From the NCBI GenBank assembly GCA_026396715.1, contig JAPLWH010000004.1, positions 1 to 41,121 of the forward strand: a stretch of DNA of 41,121 nt. The letters run 5' to 3'. The notes under the pieces are model-generated. The model did no database searches. It was given only the letters and a program-made list of their open reading frames with translations, and was not told where the DNA came from. Each line of letters begins with the position of its first letter. The first letter of the stretch is position 1. This stretch comes from Candidatus Kaiserbacteria bacterium. Its GTDB lineage: Bacteria; Patescibacteriota; Minisyncoccia; Phycocordibacterales; Phycocordibacteraceae. This document shows, piece by piece, positions 5,669-34,453 of this stretch. Both the position numbers and the translations under genes were made by a program.

Positions 5669-5739
5669 GGGTCCATCGTATAATGGTAGTACATCGCTCT
5701 CCAAAAGCGACAGCCCAGGTCCGATTCCTGGTGGGCCCG
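5669..5739 (+). tRNA. tRNA-Trp(CCA)
   Basis: GGGTCCA/TGGGCCC acceptor stem, TCGCT-CT-CCA-AA-AGCGA anticodon arm, CCAGG-TCCGATT-CCTGG T arm. Confidence 0.92.
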
Positions 5740-13207: not shown

Positions 13208-13326
13208 TGCCGTTAGAAATCGCGGACGCATCGGTCGATACCAAAAAACAGGTTCGATTATTAACTCTAACCGAATAGGGTTCGGCTGCGCCACAAGTGG
13301 TGCGTTCGCGTCCTATTTCTAACGGT
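13208..13326 (+). mobile_element. Start-codon-inserted hairpin element, copy 1 (rbfA)
   Basis: ATGAA|TGCCGTTAGAAAT...TCCTATTTCTAACGGT|ATGAA. Confidence 0.7.
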
Positions 13327-13659
13327 ATGAACCCTGACGCTCGCATACGCACCCCTCGCAAGCAGTCGAATCGCGCGACTGAGATCGTCGCACGCGAAGC
13401 TGCGCAATTCATCGCGCGTGAAGCCGGGCGAGAATCCCTCATTACCGTCATTCAGGCGCGCAGCGTCGCGCACGGTGATCGCATTCTCGTTTTCGTGAGC
13501 GTCTTCCCTGTCGAAAAAGCTCACGCGGCAATGGCTTTCCTTGAGCGTCAGCGCGAAGCATTTTCCGACCACTTAAAGACGCATGCGCGCATGCGCCTCC
13601 CGCGCGTCGATTTCCTACTTGATAACGGCGAACCGTTAGCGGAACCTGCAAAAAGTTAG
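13327..13659 (+). CDS. rbfA: Ribosome-binding factor A
   Basis: Directly after infB; LITVIQARS..DRILVFVSVFP and LPRVDFLLD match the RbfA pattern. Confidence 0.8.
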   Translation: MNPDARIRTPRKQSNRATEIVAREAAQFIAREAGRESLITVIQARSVAHGDRILVFVSVFPVEKAHAAMAFLERQREAFSDHLKTHARMRLPRVDFLLDNGEPLAEPAKS

Positions 13660-13673
13660 TATCATCAAGAAAC

Positions 13674-13745
13674 GGCCCGGTGGTGAAGCGGTAACACAGC
13701 GCTCTGCAAAAGCGCGATGCGCGGGTTCGATTCCCGCCCGGGCCT
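13674..13745 (+). tRNA. tRNA-Cys(GCA)
   Basis: GGCCCGG/CCGGGCC acceptor stem, GCGCT-CT-GCA-AA-AGCGC anticodon arm, U discriminator. Confidence 0.95.
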
Positions 13746-13809: not shown

Positions 13810-14328
13810 GTGAACCGACGACGAACCTGGACACTTCTACAATTGCAAGAAGCCGTAAAAACTTCTACAAGCTTGCGGCAGGTTATTGCGAAACTGGATC
13901 TTGTTCCTGCTGGTGGTAACTATGTACAAGTTTCCAAAGCCATCAACGATCAGAAATTGAGCACGTCGCATTTCAAAGGACAAGGATGGAATAAGGGGAT
14001 GCGAATTCCCAAAGAGCCGATATATGAACTAAAAGATATCTTGGTTCTAAATAGCCACTATGGCTTGTATCATCTAAAACAACGCCTTTTTAAAATAGGC
14101 TTGAAAGAAGCGAAATGCGAAGAGTGTGGTTGGGCTCAAGTGAGTCCTGACGGACGAATACCAATTGAACTTGACCACATAAACGGAAATCGATACGACA
14201 ACCGACTTGAGAATCTGCGTATCCTTTGTCCCAATTGCCATAGCTTGAAACCCACTCATCGTGGTAAAAATAAGAAAGCACGCCGAGGTGGTGAAACTGG
14301 TAGACACGCGACGCTTAAAACGTTGTGA
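13810..14328 (+). CDS. HNH endonuclease
   Basis: CEECG...IELDHINGNRYDNRLENLRILCPNCHS; AT-rich; 3' end overlaps tRNA-Leu. Confidence 0.9.
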   Translation: MNRRRTWTLLQLQEAVKTSTSLRQVIAKLDLVPAGGNYVQVSKAINDQKLSTSHFKGQGWNKGMRIPKEPIYELKDILVLNSHYGLYHLKQRLFKIGLKEAKCEECGWAQVSPDGRIPIELDHINGNRYDNRLENLRILCPNCHSLKPTHRGKNKKARRGGETGRHATLKTL

Positions 14329-14372
14329 GCTTTAATCGGCTCTTGTGGGTTCGATTCCCACCCTCGGCACCA
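14282..14372 (+). tRNA. tRNA-Leu(TAA)
   Basis: GCCGAGG/CCTCGGC acceptor stem, CT-TAA-AA anticodon loop, long variable arm, encoded CCA. Confidence 0.93.
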
Positions 14373-15559: not shown

Positions 15560-15632
15560 GCGCCTATAGCTCAGTTGGTAGAGCAGCTCCCTCTTAAGGA
15601 GACGGTCCCTGGTTCGAATCCAGGTAGGCGCA
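15560..15632 (+). tRNA. tRNA-Lys(CTT)
   Basis: GCGCCTA/TAGGCGC acceptor stem, CT-CTT-AA anticodon loop, TTCGAAT T-loop. Confidence 0.95.
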
Positions 15633-15671: not shown

Positions 15672-15754
15672 GCTGGGGTGGCGAAATTGGTAGACGCATC
15701 AGCCTTAGGAGCTGACGGGGTAACCCATTGGAGGTTCGAGTCCTCTCCCCAGCA
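15672..15754 (+). tRNA. tRNA-Leu(TAG)
   Basis: GCTGGGG/CCCCAGC acceptor stem, TCAGC-CT-TAG-GA-GCTGA anticodon arm, long variable arm. Confidence 0.95.
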
Positions 15755-19801: not shown

Positions 19802-21109
19802 TTATTGTTGCAGTAGCGAACTCAGAGAGCGCGCGGCATCGCCGATGGCTGTATCGAGAGTAGAGTGGCCACTTATCACATTCCCAATCATACCTGAAAA
19901 GACGCGGTCAGCGTCAGCGGGAGCTGGGGACAGCCACCCCTCGGCATAGAGCGCTTCAGGGTATGCAACTGCGGCGACCGGATCAGAAGGAGCGGCCTTC
20001 GCAAGCTCGTTCACACTCGCGGGCGCGAGCCCAGTCGCTGTGGCTGCTGCAGCCTGCTCTGCCGAGCCAGTAAGGAGCACGGCAACCTGATACGCGCCCG
20101 CAGCATTCTTCGCTCCACGCGGCAACATAAAGGCGTAGAGGAGGCCGTAAGCGCGCTTCGTCCTCGCTGTCGCGCTCTGCGGCAGTGGCGTCACGATGAA
20201 ATCGAGATTTGGATTCGCTGAACTGAGAAAACGCGCGCGCGACGCATACCCGAGATAGAGCGCGAGGTCGCCTGTAAGGAACATCTGCTCGGAATCCGGT
20301 AACGAGGTATTCCATGTGTACGAGACTTTCGAAGGGTCAGCGAATTGTGTATAGAAACCGAGCACCGACGAACCTTTCGAGGCATCACTTGAAGCATTTT
20401 GCCCGAGATCAGCGACAGGAACGCCACTCGACGAATACGAAGATATCGGAATCCCCTGCTGCAAGAAGAGTGCTGAAAGTATGCCGCGAGCATTGCGGAC
20501 ATTGTCATAAGTGCCGAGCGCGATGAGGCCGCGAGTAATCTGCCGTGACGGCGTCAAAATTGCGATGTTCGGCACAAGGCCGACAAGAGCTTCCCAGGTT
20601 GCAGGCGGCTTCGCAATACCGCTGCTTGAAAGGATGGAACGATTTGAGAAAAGAACGAGCGGATCGACGAGAAACGGCACGCCGTAGTAGCCAGAGCCGC
20701 CCGGTGCCGTGAAAATACCTCCCTCTCTAATGAATGTTCTTGTGAAGTCGCTCGCTGGAAGCGTCGAAAGCGGCACCGGCTCGATAAACCTCGTGAGCCC
20801 TCGCAAACTCTCCTGTGACGCGAGGACGAGGTCAGGCGAGCTACCAGTCGCTATCGCGGTAGCAATGTCGGCTGGAAGCGTCGCAGCATCTTTCTGCACA
20901 TAGGTAACATCTTTGAGCGTCGCATCAATCTTCGCAGCGGCAGTAAGCGCAGCCTGCATACCCTCGGAAGGCAAAGTGCCCCAGATGACGACACTACCGA
21001 TTGCATTTGATCCGCTCGTGCCCGTGAATGTCGCGAAGACGAACAGACCTATGAGCGCGCCGACGGAGAATACGCCGAGAAGGATGGTTTGAAAGAGAGA
21101 TAATTTCAT
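19802..21109 (-). CDS. Extracellular solute-binding protein (sugar-binding family), N-terminally anchored
   Basis: TM anchor, VVIWGTLP, PDLV, GVPFLVDPLVLFSN, PPATW, FLTGDLALYLG. Confidence 0.8.
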   Translation of the reverse strand: MKLSLFQTILLGVFSVGALIGLFVFATFTGTSGSNAIGSVVIWGTLPSEGMQAALTAAAKIDATLKDVTYVQKDAATLPADIATAIATGSSPDLVLASQESLRGLTRFIEPVPLSTLPASDFTRTFIREGGIFTAPGGSGYYGVPFLVDPLVLFSNRSILSSSGIAKPPATWEALVGLVPNIAILTPSRQITRGLIALGTYDNVRNARGILSALFLQQGIPISSYSSSGVPVADLGQNASSDASKGSSVLGFYTQFADPSKVSYTWNTSLPDSEQMFLTGDLALYLGYASRARFLSSANPNLDFIVTPLPQSATARTKRAYGLLYAFMLPRGAKNAAGAYQVAVLLTGSAEQAAAATATGLAPASVNELAKAAPSDPVAAVAYPEALYAEGWLSPAPADADRVFSGMIGNVISGHSTLDTAIGDAARSLSSLLQQ

Positions 21110-21227
21110 CCCGTTAGAGGTAGGAAATCGGAGATTTCCGTACGATTATTGATGATAATTCTTTCGATACTTTCATCTCGTTCAGCATAGCATTAAAATT
21201 ATCGTCCAGACCTAACCTCTAACGGGA
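21110..21227 (-). mobile_element. Start-codon-inserted hairpin element, copy 2 (solute-binding protein gene)
   Basis: Minus strand: ATGAA|TCCCGTTAGAGGT...TCCTACCTCTAACGGG|ATGAA. Confidence 0.7.
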
Positions 21228-27104: not shown

Positions 27105-27141
27105 AAACATCACGCGGCGCCTCTGGCGCCGCGTGATGTTT
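27105..27141. terminator. Bidirectional terminator after rpsA
   Basis: AAACATCACGCGGCGCC-tct-GGCGCCGCGTGATGTTT. Confidence 0.8.
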
Positions 27142-27151
27142 CTTATCATCC

Positions 27152-28162: not shown

Positions 28163-28187
28163 GCGCGGATAGTAGCACAGGGCACGG

Positions 28188-28371
28188 GCGTGATGGTATT
28201 AAATTTCGGACTCGCACAGTGAGCATGTCCGCGAGTCCCCGAGCGGATGCCGCCGAGCTTTGGCGGCGGATAAGCATGGTCCGACGCGTCTGCGCGTCGG
28301 TTATGCGAACGAGCGTGAGCGCGTCGACCCGCTGGGACGACGACGCGTGCCGAAATTTAATACCATCACGC
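28188..28371. mobile_element. MITE-like element with 22-bp perfect terminal inverted repeats
   Basis: GCGTGATGGTATTAAATTTCGG (28188-28209) and CCGAAATTTAATACCATCACGC (28350-28371). Confidence 0.7.
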
Positions 28372-28415
28372 TCGCAAAAACTTGCGCGCAAAAAAGCGAA
28401 GCGTACAATACGCAC

Positions 28416-32109: not shown

Positions 32110-33363
32110 ATGTCCAAGCGCATTGAGCCTGAAATCGAAACATTTGCACGAATCCGTGTGGTCGGTGTGGGAGGGTCCGGCAACAATGCTGTGAACCACA
32201 TGATCAACTCGAAGGTTCGCGGTGTCGAATTCATCGCCGTCAATACTGACGCCCAGGACCTCCATCGTTCGCTCGCAAAGCGCAAGATCCACATCGGCAA
32301 GAACCTCACGCGCGGACTCGGCGCGGGCATGAATCCAGAGCTCGGCAAGCGCGCGGGCGAAGAGACGCGTCAGGAGATTCAGGAAGCGCTCCAGGGTTCC
32401 GACATGGTATTCATCACGTGCGGCATGGGCGGCGGCACAGGCTCAGGCGCCGCTCCGGTCGTCGCGAAAATCGCGAAAGAGATCGGCGCACTCACGGTTG
32501 CGATCGTGACGAAGCCTTTCAGTTTTGAAGGCGCACAGCGCAAAGAGATCGCGGAGCGCGGCCTGGCCGAACTCAAGAAAGAAGTTGACGCTTTCATCGT
32601 GATTCCGAACGACAAGCTGCTCGCCGTCGTCGAAGCGCAGACCTCGGCGAAGTCTGCATTTGCTATGTGCGACGAAATCCTCCGCCAAGCAGTCGAGGGC
32701 GTCTCCGACATCATCACGACACCGGGAGACATCAACACCGACTTCAATGACATCAAAGCCATCATGGAAGGCGCAGGTCCGGCACTCATGGGCATCGGCG
32801 TCGCTGAAGGTGACGACCGCGCAAAAGAGGCGGCGAAGCGCGCCGTCAATTCCCCACTCCTCGATGTCTCGATTTCAGGCGCGAAAGGCATTCTCTTCGT
32901 CGTCGCTGGTGCAGACGACCTCGGCATCATGGAAGTACAGGAGGCGGCGAAAGTCATCAACGAGTCCATCGACAAAAATGCGAAGGTCATCTTCGGCATG
33001 ATGAAGGACGACAAGTTGAAGAAGGGTCAAATCCGTATCATCGTCATCGCAACCGGCTTCCCCGAGAGCGCCGCACACGCTGTACTACCGAGCATCGAGC
33101 GTTCCCTTTTTGCTGTACCTACCGAACGACGCGAGGAAGAACGCGGTCGCATCTACCATGAGATATTGAAACGCGACGAGACAGAAACGAAGACAGAGAA
33201 AACGGAAAAGATAGATTTTGTAAAAAGCGAACCGATCAAAGAAGTGAAGGAGGAACCTATCGTGACCGCGACGCCGCAGAAACGCGAAGCTGTAGCACCG
33301 GCTCCGGAAGATGAAGAAGCTTGGGGCGCGATTCCAGCATTCTTGCGCAGGCACAAGAAATAA
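32110..33363 (+). CDS. ftsZ: Cell division protein FtsZ
   Basis: VGVGGSGNNA, GMGGGTGSG, NTDFND, C-terminal IPAFLRR. Confidence 0.98.
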   Translation: MSKRIEPEIETFARIRVVGVGGSGNNAVNHMINSKVRGVEFIAVNTDAQDLHRSLAKRKIHIGKNLTRGLGAGMNPELGKRAGEETRQEIQEALQGSDMVFITCGMGGGTGSGAAPVVAKIAKEIGALTVAIVTKPFSFEGAQRKEIAERGLAELKKEVDAFIVIPNDKLLAVVEAQTSAKSAFAMCDEILRQAVEGVSDIITTPGDINTDFNDIKAIMEGAGPALMGIGVAEGDDRAKEAAKRAVNSPLLDVSISGAKGILFVVAGADDLGIMEVQEAAKVINESIDKNAKVIFGMMKDDKLKKGQIRIIVIATGFPESAAHAVLPSIERSLFAVPTERREEERGRIYHEILKRDETETKTEKTEKIDFVKSEPIKEVKEEPIVTATPQKREAVAPAPEDEEAWGAIPAFLRRHKK

Positions 33364-33372
33364 GTCATGCGG

Positions 33373-33413
33373 AGCAAAACAACGCGGCGCCTTTGGCGCC
33401 GCGTTGTTTTGCT
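33373..33413. terminator. Terminator after ftsZ
   Basis: AGCAAAACAACGCGGCGCC-ttt-GGCGCCGCGTTGTTTTGCT. Confidence 0.82.
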
Positions 33414-33451
33414 TCTCTCGGCTATGAACGGTACACTACGAGCTATATGTA

Positions 33452-33529
33452 CCCCGTTAGAAATGACGGACTTATATGCTTACCTTATTCACACTTATGA
33501 ACGAGACGAACCGTCCTATTTCTAACGAG
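33452..33529 (+). mobile_element. Start-codon-inserted hairpin element, copy 3 (trxB)
   Basis: ATGTA|CCCCGTTAGAAAT...TCCTATTTCTAACGAG|GTGCA. Confidence 0.65.
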
Positions 33530-34453
33530 GTGCACGACCTCATCATCATCGGCGGCGGACCGGCGGGCGTCGCCGCGGGCGTCTACGCGGCTCGCAAACA
33601 CTTGAAGACCGCCCTCATTACGGAAGAGATCGGCGGACAATCGGTCGTCTCCGATGGCATAGAGAACTGGATCGGCACGCCGAAGATCAGCGGCGCCGAT
33701 CTCGCGAAATCATTCAAAGCGCATCTCGACGCCGTGAAAGGCGACGTGGTAACGCTGGTACTCGGCGAACGGGTCGTGTCGCTCACAAAAGCCCCAGAAG
33801 GATTCCTCGCGAAGACGAAGACCGGAAAAGAGTTTACGGCGAAAGCGGTGCTCATCGCCACCGGCGCGGGCCGCCGCAAGCTCGACGTCCCTGGCGCACA
33901 CCTCTTTGAGAACAAAGGCGTTACCTACTGCGCCTCTTGCGACGGACCGCTCTTCGGCGGCATGGACGTCGCGGTCATCGGCGGCGGCAATGCAGGCTTC
34001 GAGACGGCGCTCCAGCTCCTCGCGTATGCAAAGTCGGTCACGCTCATCCATCGCCATAAAGAGTTCAAGGCCGATGCGGTCACGGTCGAGAAAGCGAGCG
34101 CGCACCCGAACATGCGTATCATCCGGCACGCTGAACCGACTGAGGTCATGGGCACGCAGTTCGTAACCGGTTTGAAATACAAAGACAAAGACTCGGGCGA
34201 GGTACAAGAGCTCGCCGTCTCCGGCGTCTTCGTCGAAGCGGGCGTCATCCCGAATACCGACTTCACTGAGGGGCTCGTGGAACTCGACGCAGTCAAACGC
34301 GTGAAGACCGATCCGCGCAATCAGCACACGAGCGTCGAAGGCGTCTGGGCGGCGGGAGACTGCACCGACGAGCTCTATCATCAGAACAACATCGCCACCG
34401 GCGACGGCGTGAAGGCGCTCGAAGACATCTACCTCTGGATCAAGAAGCAGTAG
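33530..34453 (+). CDS. trxB: Thioredoxin reductase / AhpF C-terminal-like FAD disulfide reductase
   Basis: DLIIIGGGPAG, CASCDG, IGGGNAG, WAAGD; start is GTG 33530 or in-frame ATG 33497. Confidence 0.9.
   Translation: MHDLIIIGGGPAGVAAGVYAARKHLKTALITEEIGGQSVVSDGIENWIGTPKISGADLAKSFKAHLDAVKGDVVTLVLGERVVSLTKAPEGFLAKTKTGKEFTAKAVLIATGAGRRKLDVPGAHLFENKGVTYCASCDGPLFGGMDVAVIGGGNAGFETALQLLAYAKSVTLIHRHKEFKADAVTVEKASAHPNMRIIRHAEPTEVMGTQFVTGLKYKDKDSGEVQELAVSGVFVEAGVIPNTDFTEGLVELDAVKRVKTDPRNQHTSVEGVWAAGDCTDELYHQNNIATGDGVKALEDIYLWIKKQ

Follow-up and report, generated by a model that had tools for sequence, protein, structure and literature searches.

Here, we describe the start region of a thioredoxin reductase-like gene in a 41,121-nucleotide stretch of DNA from Candidatus Kaiserbacteria bacterium (contig JAPLWH010000004.1 of assembly GCA_026396715.1; the whole stretch is hereafter called the window, and coordinates refer to its forward strand unless marked otherwise), where a 79-bp, gene-less sequence with paired ends (33452-33530, +) lies across the first codons. 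The gene (33530..34453, +; 307 aa counted from a GTG whose G is the last base of the inserted sequence) follows ftsA, ftsZ and a terminator-like hairpin. Its product matches Pfam Pyr_redox_2 (2.7e-45) and scores under the cut-offs of two NCBIfam equivalog models, TIGR01292 (TRX_reduct; 279.7 bits, cut-off 343.45) and TIGR03140 (AhpF; 300.7 bits, cut-off 502.9). Because both cut-offs are missed, the gene is called trxB-like (trxB for short); judged by these profiles, its product is a pyridine-nucleotide-disulfide oxidoreductase nearest to thioredoxin reductase and to the C-terminal half of AhpF. The hairpin upstream, which is GC-rich and followed by a T-rich run (33382..33404, +; an inverted repeat plus a direct repeat), is the probable terminator of ftsZ and lies upstream of the trxB promoter. 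It is kept in the nearest relative with loop and stem changed, and was not called by a terminator scan of 33300-33620.

The original start of the gene, ATG (33447-33449) followed by TAC (33450-33452), leads into a 12-nt left arm, CCCGTTAGAAAT (33453-33464), and then GACGG (33465-33469). On the right side, CCGTC (33511-33515) is followed by CT, a 12-nt arm, ATTTCTAACGAG (33518-33529), and GTGCAC (33530-33535), after which the coding sequence continues with GACCTCATC. This layout, including the GTG at 33530 as a duplicate that still supplies a start codon, had been read correctly in a first-pass annotation made from the letters of the window. The two sides form terminal inverted repeats of 13 nt (33452-33464 / 33518-33530) with 12 of 13 positions paired (mismatch C33454/A33528); the 10-nt arms, CGTTAGAAAT, are fully complementary, and an identical pair occurs again at 13211/13315. 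The inner stem GACGG/CCGTC (33465-33469 / 33511-33515) encloses a unique loop of 41 nt, and a subterminal TCCT (33514-33517), a feature of the family described below in the sense orientation of the gene, is present here as CCGTCCT-ATTTCTAACGAG. The RNA of 33447-33545 is predicted to fold at -27.5 kcal/mol, compared with -14.0 +/- 2.7 kcal/mol for 200 shuffled sequences (z -5.0, with no shuffle as good), and DNA folding of the region gave z-scores of -3.5 and -3.1 for the two strands. No source copy of the loop was found by blastn, in which only the element termini matched elsewhere. Rfam had no match to the element either: a scan of the window at gathering scores returned six tRNAs only, and a scan of 33380-33600 at E <= 1 gave two weak matches, both confined to the terminator hairpin.

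Orthologs were searched by protein in 61 genomes of the genus, 58 of which had a match, and 29 loci besides that of the window were retrieved. In the nearest relative (genome G013, locus L014), whose TrxB is 94% identical and whose 147 nt upstream of trxB agree at 132 of 147 positions, the site is empty and reads ...GGTACACTACGAGCTAT-ATGCAC-GACCTCATC.... Compared with this empty site, the window has 83 added bases, namely the 79-bp element and a 4-bp duplication arranged as A-TGTA-[C...79 bp...G]-TGCA-C, and cutting 33448-33530 yields ATGCAC-GAC, letter for letter the G013 sequence. The left copy of the duplication, TGTA (33448-33451), is placed on the basis of the empty site A-TGCA-C of L014 and the 4-bp rule of the family, and the right copy, TGCA, occupies 33531-33534, so that the two match at three of four positions. 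The prediction that removal of 83 bp would restore a typical start holds, since cutting 33453-33535 gives ATGTAC-GAC (MYD), the start of 8 of the 25 readable orthologs; the others begin with MND (7), MKD (4), MHD (3), MFD (2) and MLD (1), and the four unreadable loci comprise two without a start codon within 12 nt, one with a missed motif and one at a contig end. Paired family termini were found in 0 of the 29 ortholog loci. The element-free start that the annotation had suggested looking for thus exists in G013, and the contrary outcome, a region conserved as coding sequence in all orthologs, did not appear. The segment 33452-33530 is almost certainly an insertion belonging to a family of hairpin-ended mobile elements, as the annotation had supposed in counting it as the third copy in the window; three copies were indeed found (13208-13327, 21109-21227 and 33452-33530), and the trxB copy is a non-autonomous member. 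The element entered after the A of the trxB start codon and duplicated the four bases that follow (TGCA), and with its terminal G it rebuilt a start codon, the GTG at 33530, directly behind it.

The ends of the family are defined as [T/C]CCCGTTAG-NNNN ... NNNN-CTAACGGG[A/G], and 30 elements with the ends CCCGTTAG-NNNN...NNNN-CTAACGGG were counted in the 705-kb genome to which the window belongs (G000). This genome has 21 matches to the pattern CCGTTAGA-N(40-130)-TCTAACGG (reversed control, 0). Among 41 relatives, 13 have the pattern, namely G000 itself, 7 of the remaining 24 genomes of the genus, and 5 of 16 genomes belonging to other families within the order, compared with 0-1 matches for the reversed control. 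Exact 12-nt ends of the AAAT type separated by a 70-100-nt spacer were detected in at least 120 stretches from many lineages of the Candidate Phyla Radiation (CPR), the group of the present small-genome host, and, among the matches listed, a few metagenome-assembled genomes of Planctomycetota, Deltaproteobacteria, Nitrospirae, Omnitrophota and Gammaproteobacteria also carry such ends. Within the window, a sister copy of 120 bp with T·A ends and the duplication TGAA (13208..13327, +) sits in the ATGA overlap between infB (IF-2) and a 110-aa open reading frame (ORF) without a Pfam or NCBIfam match; it contains an upstream ORF (uORF) of 39 codons whose TAA lies 4 nt before the rebuilt ATG (13327). 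The other sister copy, of 119 bp and the AGAGGT/ACCTCT subfamily (21109..21227, -), occupies the start codon of a gene for a solute-binding protein (19802..21109, -) and has a uORF of 6 codons. From copy to copy, the loops are unrelated in sequence; the ~115-nt class (copies of 112-118 nt, e.g., window 13270-13290) has a conserved internal box, TAATCG-R-ATAGGGT-W-CGG, located two thirds of the way through and common to subfamilies and species. The same start codons bear different subfamilies across species (G000, G013, G009): the flanks of the copy at the solute-binding-protein gene (C3_21110) match those of locus L045 in G013, whose element has AGAAAT ends, and the flanks of C22_8942 in G000 match those of L048 and L090, whose elements are of differing subfamilies. 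These matching flanks suggest that one start site has been hit repeatedly. Unusual arrangements were also seen, including a start codon in G000 that carries two family elements one behind the other (C8:42045-42190, with ACGCAT between the right and left ends), a tandem of a similar kind upstream of a full-length element in L108, and a minimal 31-bp hairpin in G000 (C18:2482-2512) that consists of two 12-nt ends and a 7-nt loop without a matching duplication.

The target was characterized using 91 elements from G000 and three more genomes of the genus, 61 of them at start codons, i.e., abutting an ATG or GTG at the head of an open frame of 40 codons or more, with a start codon and a matching duplication upstream. 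The outermost base pair is complementary in 61 of 61 start-codon copies (T·A in 51, C·G in 10), T·A copies rebuild ATG (51/51), and C·G copies rebuild GTG (10/10), with the upstream start still ATG in 8 of these 10. Stem positions 10-12 covary (AT/GC, TA/CG) and are paired in 60-61 of the 61 copies. Left and right copies of the 4-bp duplication agree fully in 58 of 61, and the duplication reads TGAA (29), TGCG (13), TGGA (11), TGAT (3), TGTA (2) or TGCA, TGGG and TGAG (1 each). The same holds in a cross-phylum sample (120 loci, 121 elements), where the outermost pair is complementary in all 76 copies at starts, and ATG stands upstream and GTG downstream in 11 of 11 C·G copies. The GTG of trxB therefore follows from the outermost pair of its element, C33452·G33530. 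Accordingly, the view of ATGTAC and GTGCAC as a 6-bp duplicate has to be revised: the duplication is 4 bp (TGNN), and, read against the family rule, the C of TAC and the G of GTG are bases of the element and not mutations, with T versus C inside the duplication as the only difference that would need a later substitution. The proposed target RTG-N-A is likewise too narrow, given the frequent TGCG and TGGA and the C·G-ended relatives that also occupy non-start sites, where they duplicate TATA, TACA, CTAG, CGAG and CGAA; the TATA/TACA insertion sites lie in -10-like boxes. In G000, 19 of the 30 copies are on start codons of long open frames. A 5-mer preference combined with loss of intragenic insertions was considered as an explanation and found to be a misfit on its own, all 19 start-type copies being at starts. 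By crude longest-ORF calls, ATG followed by AA, CG or GA occurs in G000 at 139 predicted starts, at 482 intergenic non-start positions and 5411 times inside ORFs; with 482 intergenic sites against 139 starts, either the enzyme senses more than five bases or selection is very strict.

Full-length members of the family are 275-278 bp long, and their sole gene encodes a GIY-YIG nuclease of 94-95 residues. The copy in G000 (C20:1528-1805, 278 bp) has a single 95-codon ORF on the strand of the host gene (C20:1527-1811), which starts at the host ATG, crosses the left end (MNTVRD...) and ends with ...SLTV, its TGA overlapping the rebuilt ATG. The encoded protein (P0002, 95 aa) matches Pfam GIY-YIG (PF01541) over residues 11-77 (1.6e-13), and its best solved relative by sequence is the UPF0213 protein 1zg2 (2.7e-9). 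In six of six full-length elements, from six genomes, the GIY-YIG gene sits exactly between the family ends, starting with ATGAAT plus the left end and stopping at a TGA that overlaps the rebuilt ATG; the subterminal TCCT of the right end is present in full-length ORFs and in most copies. All 12 of the 12 homologues compared keep the same residues in the columns of catalytic type (Y, Y, R, H and E). At E <= 1e-20, 11 of the 13 genomes with the hairpin gave a nuclease match, and of the 28 without it, 1 did, a comparison in which the threshold was picked after the data had been seen and kin genomes are not independent. With low confidence, we propose that the GIY-YIG nuclease could be what moves the elements. 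The evidence for its role in mobility is limited to co-occurrence, and a further point against is the difference between the ends of the G000 full-length copy (AGAGAT/ATCTCT) and those of the trxB copy (AGAAAT/ATTTCT); no AGAAAT-ended full-length copy was found among the genomes examined. Two more small GIY-YIG genes were observed in G000. One (C29:12083-12331) is bounded by inverted ends of another kind, 17 nt long, and is preceded by a TATACT box of its own, 8 nt from the ATG; the other (C4:143-367) has right ends of the CCCGTGAGAT subfamily, no left end, and adjoins a transposase fragment.

How trxB would be expressed across the element depends on where transcription and translation begin. 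A -10-like hexamer, TACACT (33432..33437, +), ends 9 nt before the original ATG, where the annotation had located it. In 23 of the 25 readable orthologs, a TAnnnT hexamer precedes the ATG, ending 5-10 nt (mostly 6-7) short of it, and 2 of the 25 have a Shine-Dalgarno (SD)-like motif; among the 61 targeted genes, 25 have a TAnnnT-type hexamer and 5 an SD-like motif. This pattern indicates leaderless or coupled initiation, and the trxB mRNA is probably leaderless or near-leaderless. A -10 element in the right end was rejected as another source of leaderless mRNA because the hexamers found there across subfamilies (TATTTC, TATCTC, TACCTC and GGTCTC) lack the final T. From the old ATG, a uORF of 17 codons (33447..33500, +; MYPVRNDGLICLPYSHL) runs to a TGA (33498-33500) that overlaps an ATG (33497..33499, +) in frame with trxB, a geometry that had been described correctly. 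A further in-frame ATG in the loop (33476..33478, +) would add 18 residues and opens the longest ORF (33476..34453). In the mechanism that we propose, the TACACT box would yield a leaderless or near-leaderless mRNA, on which translation would therefore begin at the original ATG 33447. Ribosomes would advance 17 codons into the element, opening the hairpin as they go, before stopping at TGA 33498, and would then restart at the overlapping in-frame ATG 33497 (ATGA), which would add 11 residues (MNETNRPISNE-VHDL...), or otherwise at GTG 33530, so that the products would be TrxB with an 11-residue N-terminal extension, recognizable by a peptide beginning MNETNRPISNEVHDLIIIGGGPAGVAAGVYAAR, or the native-length protein starting V/M-H-D-L, (M/V)HDLIIIGGG.... 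We give expression by uORF translation and subsequent restart about an even chance.

The right end of the family appears, from its sequence, to be built for such a translational hand-over. The sequence ATTTCTAACGGG-ATGA serves all three entry frames, providing an in-frame fusion (ATT-TCT-AAC-GGG-ATG), a TAA 4 nt before the ATG (TTC-TAA, 4 nt, ATG) or a TGA overlapping the ATG (GGA-TGA). Among 58 gene-less copies from four genomes of the genus, 43 hand over to the host frame, 21 by a TAA at -7, 12 by in-frame fusion and 10 by internal relays (trxB included), where the uORF stops beside an in-frame start within the element, whereas loop shuffling gives 20.1 +/- 3.4. Hand-over was scored in 43 of 58 copies in the sense and 22 of 58 in the antisense orientation (discordant copies, 25 versus 4), or in 41 versus 19 of 54 when likely orthologous copies are collapsed. 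In the 110-120-nt class, length modulo 3 equals 1 in 21 of 31 copies, and of those, 19 of 21 are open to the TAA, compared with 4 of 21 in antisense.

Several observations weigh against hand-over as the explanation for trxB. The trxB relay alone is unremarkable, 20% of loop shuffles giving an equivalent arrangement, and 15 of the 58 genus copies stop early without a relay. Early-stop copies with identical uORFs are common to G000 and G013 (C12_10022 and L052), and because such copies persist between species, hand-over through the uORF is not obligatory. Across phyla the effect is weak (sense 28 of 60 versus antisense 21 of 60); by length, the 110-124-nt copies give 21 versus 13 of 37, and the 94-109-nt class has no signal (7 versus 8 of 23). 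Copies are, moreover, related by descent, so these statistics overstate their independence. The predicted RNA fold pairs the UG of the old AUG as well as the GUG inside the stem, and leaderless initiation could therefore be hindered. Finally, a consensus sigma-70 promoter scan of 33300-33620 found 0 sites, and for this reason the promoter assignment relies on the ortholog comparison. The re-initiation rescue put forward in the first-pass annotation thus gains from the genus statistics, is backed weakly by the cross-phylum ones and stays plausible.

The gene behind the element is intact and constrained: compared with the G013 gene, it has 72 nucleotide differences, distributed 9/10/53 over the first, second and third codon positions; of the affected codons, 45 changed synonymously and 18 non-synonymously. 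Of the 18 sequencing runs listed, none is recorded as RNA. DNA contigs from four runs were compared with the element region, and those of two same-habitat runs span the element unchanged. A contig from run X7 also carries the element and has 17 differences over 306 nt, 13 of them itemised. One of these, 33486 T>G, by our own reading of the frame converts the trxB-frame codon 33485-33487 from TTA to TGA and shuts the frame opened at 33476; in the uORF the same change only replaces Tyr by Asp, and the uORF and ATG 33497 stay open. A joint from 33471 to 33512 in the X7 DNA, which skips 40 nt, was set aside because it occurs in one contig at depth 2.4 with 25 on the side and likely derives from another copy or organism.

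The alternatives differ in what they make of the uORF. Direct initiation at the rebuilt GTG 33530 or the loop ATG 33497, with no role for the uORF, could occur on a 3' fragment with a short leader or none, produced when RNase III cuts the ~21-bp stem, or could reflect SD-independent initiation that tolerates a start codon at the foot or in the loop of a hairpin. The early-stopping genus copies mentioned above and 32 of 60 cross-phylum copies without a relay precede intact genes, the 94-109-nt class has no frame signal, both in-frame ATGs fall in the predicted loop, and G000 has a gene with an RNase III domain (137.5 bits); SD-like motifs are also rare before targets (5/61; 2/25), so that initiation in this lineage is unconventional anyway. 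Direct initiation leaves unexplained, however, the sense excess within the genus, both over all copies and in the frame of the 110-120-nt class, and the three-frame design of the right end, and the GUG at 33530 is itself paired in the predicted fold. We regard it as a serious rival, owing to the weak cross-phylum effect, the persistent early stops, the 20% chance expectation and the paired starts, and judge it possible if rather unlikely. That the insertion silenced or crippled trxB, a gene now heading for loss behind a coincidental geometry, would agree with the chance expectation for a single relay, with the strong hairpin over both start codons and with the absence of the insertion from the nearest sampled species, by which it could be recent. 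This seems improbable given an ORF intact over 307 codons with its third-position and synonymous bias, the lack of a second TrxB match in G000 (only one was found with this query), the 19 of 30 G000 copies on starts of long open frames, and the X7 contig, in which the element stands at the same place in a strain differing at 17 of 306 positions and has therefore persisted through strain divergence.

That 79 to 83 nt are lost from the RNA in the manner of an intron, or jumped by the ribosome in a bypass of the T4 gene 60 type, is an explanation that we consider scarcely credible, even though the matched flanks have a superficial likeness to take-off and landing sites, and the stable hairpin to a bypass hairpin. 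The Rfam scans returned nothing for the element at either stringency, loops are unrelated between copies, and a skipped or spliced element would have an irrelevant reading frame, contrary to the enrichment of length phase and open frames in sense and to the 12 of 58 in-frame open fusions. In T4 gene 60, a stop codon stands beside the take-off codon and the gap content is irrelevant; here, the frame of the gap appears, from the genus statistics, to be under selection, and there is no stop after the first two codons. With regard to mobility, a Y1 (HUH) transposase instead of the GIY-YIG protein might mobilise the hairpin elements, in the manner of REP/REPIN-RAYT or of PATEs with an IS200/IS605 TnpA, as such enzymes use hairpin-ended repeats and G000 has one Y1_Tnp match above the Pfam cut-off (C25:12005-12223, 31.3 bits). 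Y1 matches were obtained for 11 of the 13 hairpin-positive genomes, but hairpin-negative genomes have them as well (16 of 28), the G000 Y1 gene is flanked by a different repeat with no paired family termini within 1.5 kb, the elements make a 4-bp duplication whereas IS200/IS605 transposition makes none, and it is the GIY-YIG gene that lies exactly between the ends of all six full-length elements; a Y1-driven family is, in our estimate, very unlikely. The Y1 gene in question, a 247-codon frame (C25:11756-12499) with the Y1_Tnp match, is flanked by hairpins of the GGAAGGTCTGACCTTCC type, and may form with them a separate REP/RAYT-like system; GGAAGGTCTGACCTTCC-like hairpins also occur upstream of trxB in L042.

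Returning to an insertion read through by translation of the uORF and restart, the elements can be compared with several known systems. Bacterial MITEs (miniature transposable elements with inverted repeats), such as the Neisseria Correia/NEMIS elements and MITEAba12, are short (~50-280 bp), non-coding and multi-copy, have hairpin-forming terminal inverted repeats and short target duplications, are co-transcribed with their neighbours and go back to a longer element that codes for a protein and shares their ends. The trxB copy has the generic features of this group (short, non-coding, terminal inverted repeats, duplication, multiple copies and an empty site in a relative), and, by anatomy, the family is a MITE family with what appears to be a matching, putatively autonomous form. 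It differs from MITEs in landing on start codons and rebuilding them with its own terminal base, in a 4-bp TGNN duplication, in a full-length partner whose sole protein is a 94-95-aa GIY-YIG nuclease and not a DDE or serine transposase, and in a nuclease ORF that borrows the host start codon and ends in an ATGA hand-over. IS200/IS605 elements with their PATEs and the REP/REPIN-RAYT systems, which depend on a Y1 HUH transposase and subterminal hairpins and make no target duplication, resemble the family as hairpin-dependent small elements with a strong orientation bias, many gene-less derivatives and a tiny catalytic protein. They are distinguished by the terminal hairpin and 4-bp duplication found here, and the Y1 gene of G000 is unlinked to the family ends. 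In bacterial operons, genes are coupled by overlapping stop and start codons (ATGA) through termination-reinitiation or 70S scanning. The short upstream frame, with a stop overlapping the next start or 4 nt before it, is shared with such translational coupling; unlike in operons, the unit here is imported by a mobile element and serves all three entry frames.

The closest published system, to the extent of the text available, is Ssn, comprising single-domain GIY-YIG nucleases that act on single-stranded DNA and are flanked by NTS/SRM hairpin repeats (Chenal et al. 2025, PMC11893778). Its authors point, in that text, to an insertion sequence-like architecture and raise mobility as a hypothesis; the discussion there also cites the IS200/IS605-PATE and REP/REPIN-RAYT systems. 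Both systems have a stand-alone GIY-YIG protein of ~100 aa between hairpin repeats scattered genome-wide, and P0002 (95 aa) is a single-domain protein of the same size class. Further marks of Ssn are a protein within CDD cd10448 and sequence-specific cleavage of single-stranded DNA beside the hairpin; for P0002, the solved protein nearest by sequence is UPF0213 1zg2. The SRM motif, in the published form given there, was found in 0 of 30 elements, and the 3 matches in G000 compare with 5-11 in shuffled genomes. In addition, the ends of the present family pair with each other, whereas SRM repeats, as described in the same text, each form their own ~30-nt hairpin, and the main text of PMC11893778 mentions neither target duplications nor start-codon targeting ("start codon" occurs 0 times). 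GIY-YIG ORFs have also been reported in non-intron insertions of CPR rRNA genes (PMC11270868), which, in the available text, concern the same host group and rRNA genes only; "inverted repeat," "palindrom" and "start codon" each have 0 occurrences there. No description of start-codon GIY-YIG elements was found in the literature searched, which left most subscription journals and supplements outside and included PMC11270868 and PMC12455944 in part.

The start-codon family is thus large and apparently undescribed. We tentatively suggest, while thinking it doubtful, that it could be a distinct class of transposon whose sole machinery would be a ~95-residue GIY-YIG nuclease between 13-nt inverted ends, which would be enzymatically aimed at start codons and not merely filtered by selection, and which would use the host start and return translation to the host in three frames. 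Such aiming may make use of DNA that is single-stranded at leaderless-gene promoters, where the -10 box and the ATG share one transcription bubble; both kinds of site are hit, TATA/TACA in -10 boxes and TGNN in starts. A selfish element can in this way persist in a genome that has hardly any DNA to spare; at a start codon, four duplicated bases and one donated base keep the gene startable. Should the proposed hand-over operate, the right end would be a natural, frame-independent translational coupler, and the elements offer a handle on start-codon choice in SD-poor, leaderless-prone CPR bacteria. If the GIY-YIG protein is the transposase, the mobility hypothesis raised for Ssn would extend to clear pairs of insertions and empty sites. 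The elements also call for caution in annotation, as ORF callers stretch trxB to the ATG at 33476, and starts are systematically ambiguous in element-bearing CPR genomes.

Other features of the window were recorded alongside. An element of another kind, with inverted ends of 25 nt (96% complementary and 140 nt apart), occupies 28185-28374, between two divergently oriented genes and not at a start codon. GC-rich hairpins that are 83% identical and followed by T-rich runs (terminator-like) lie at 27112-27147 and 33382-33417, one of them after ftsZ. The six tRNA genes found by the Rfam scan are located at 2844-2925, 5669-5739, 13674-13745, 14282-14369, 15560-15632 and 15672-15754.

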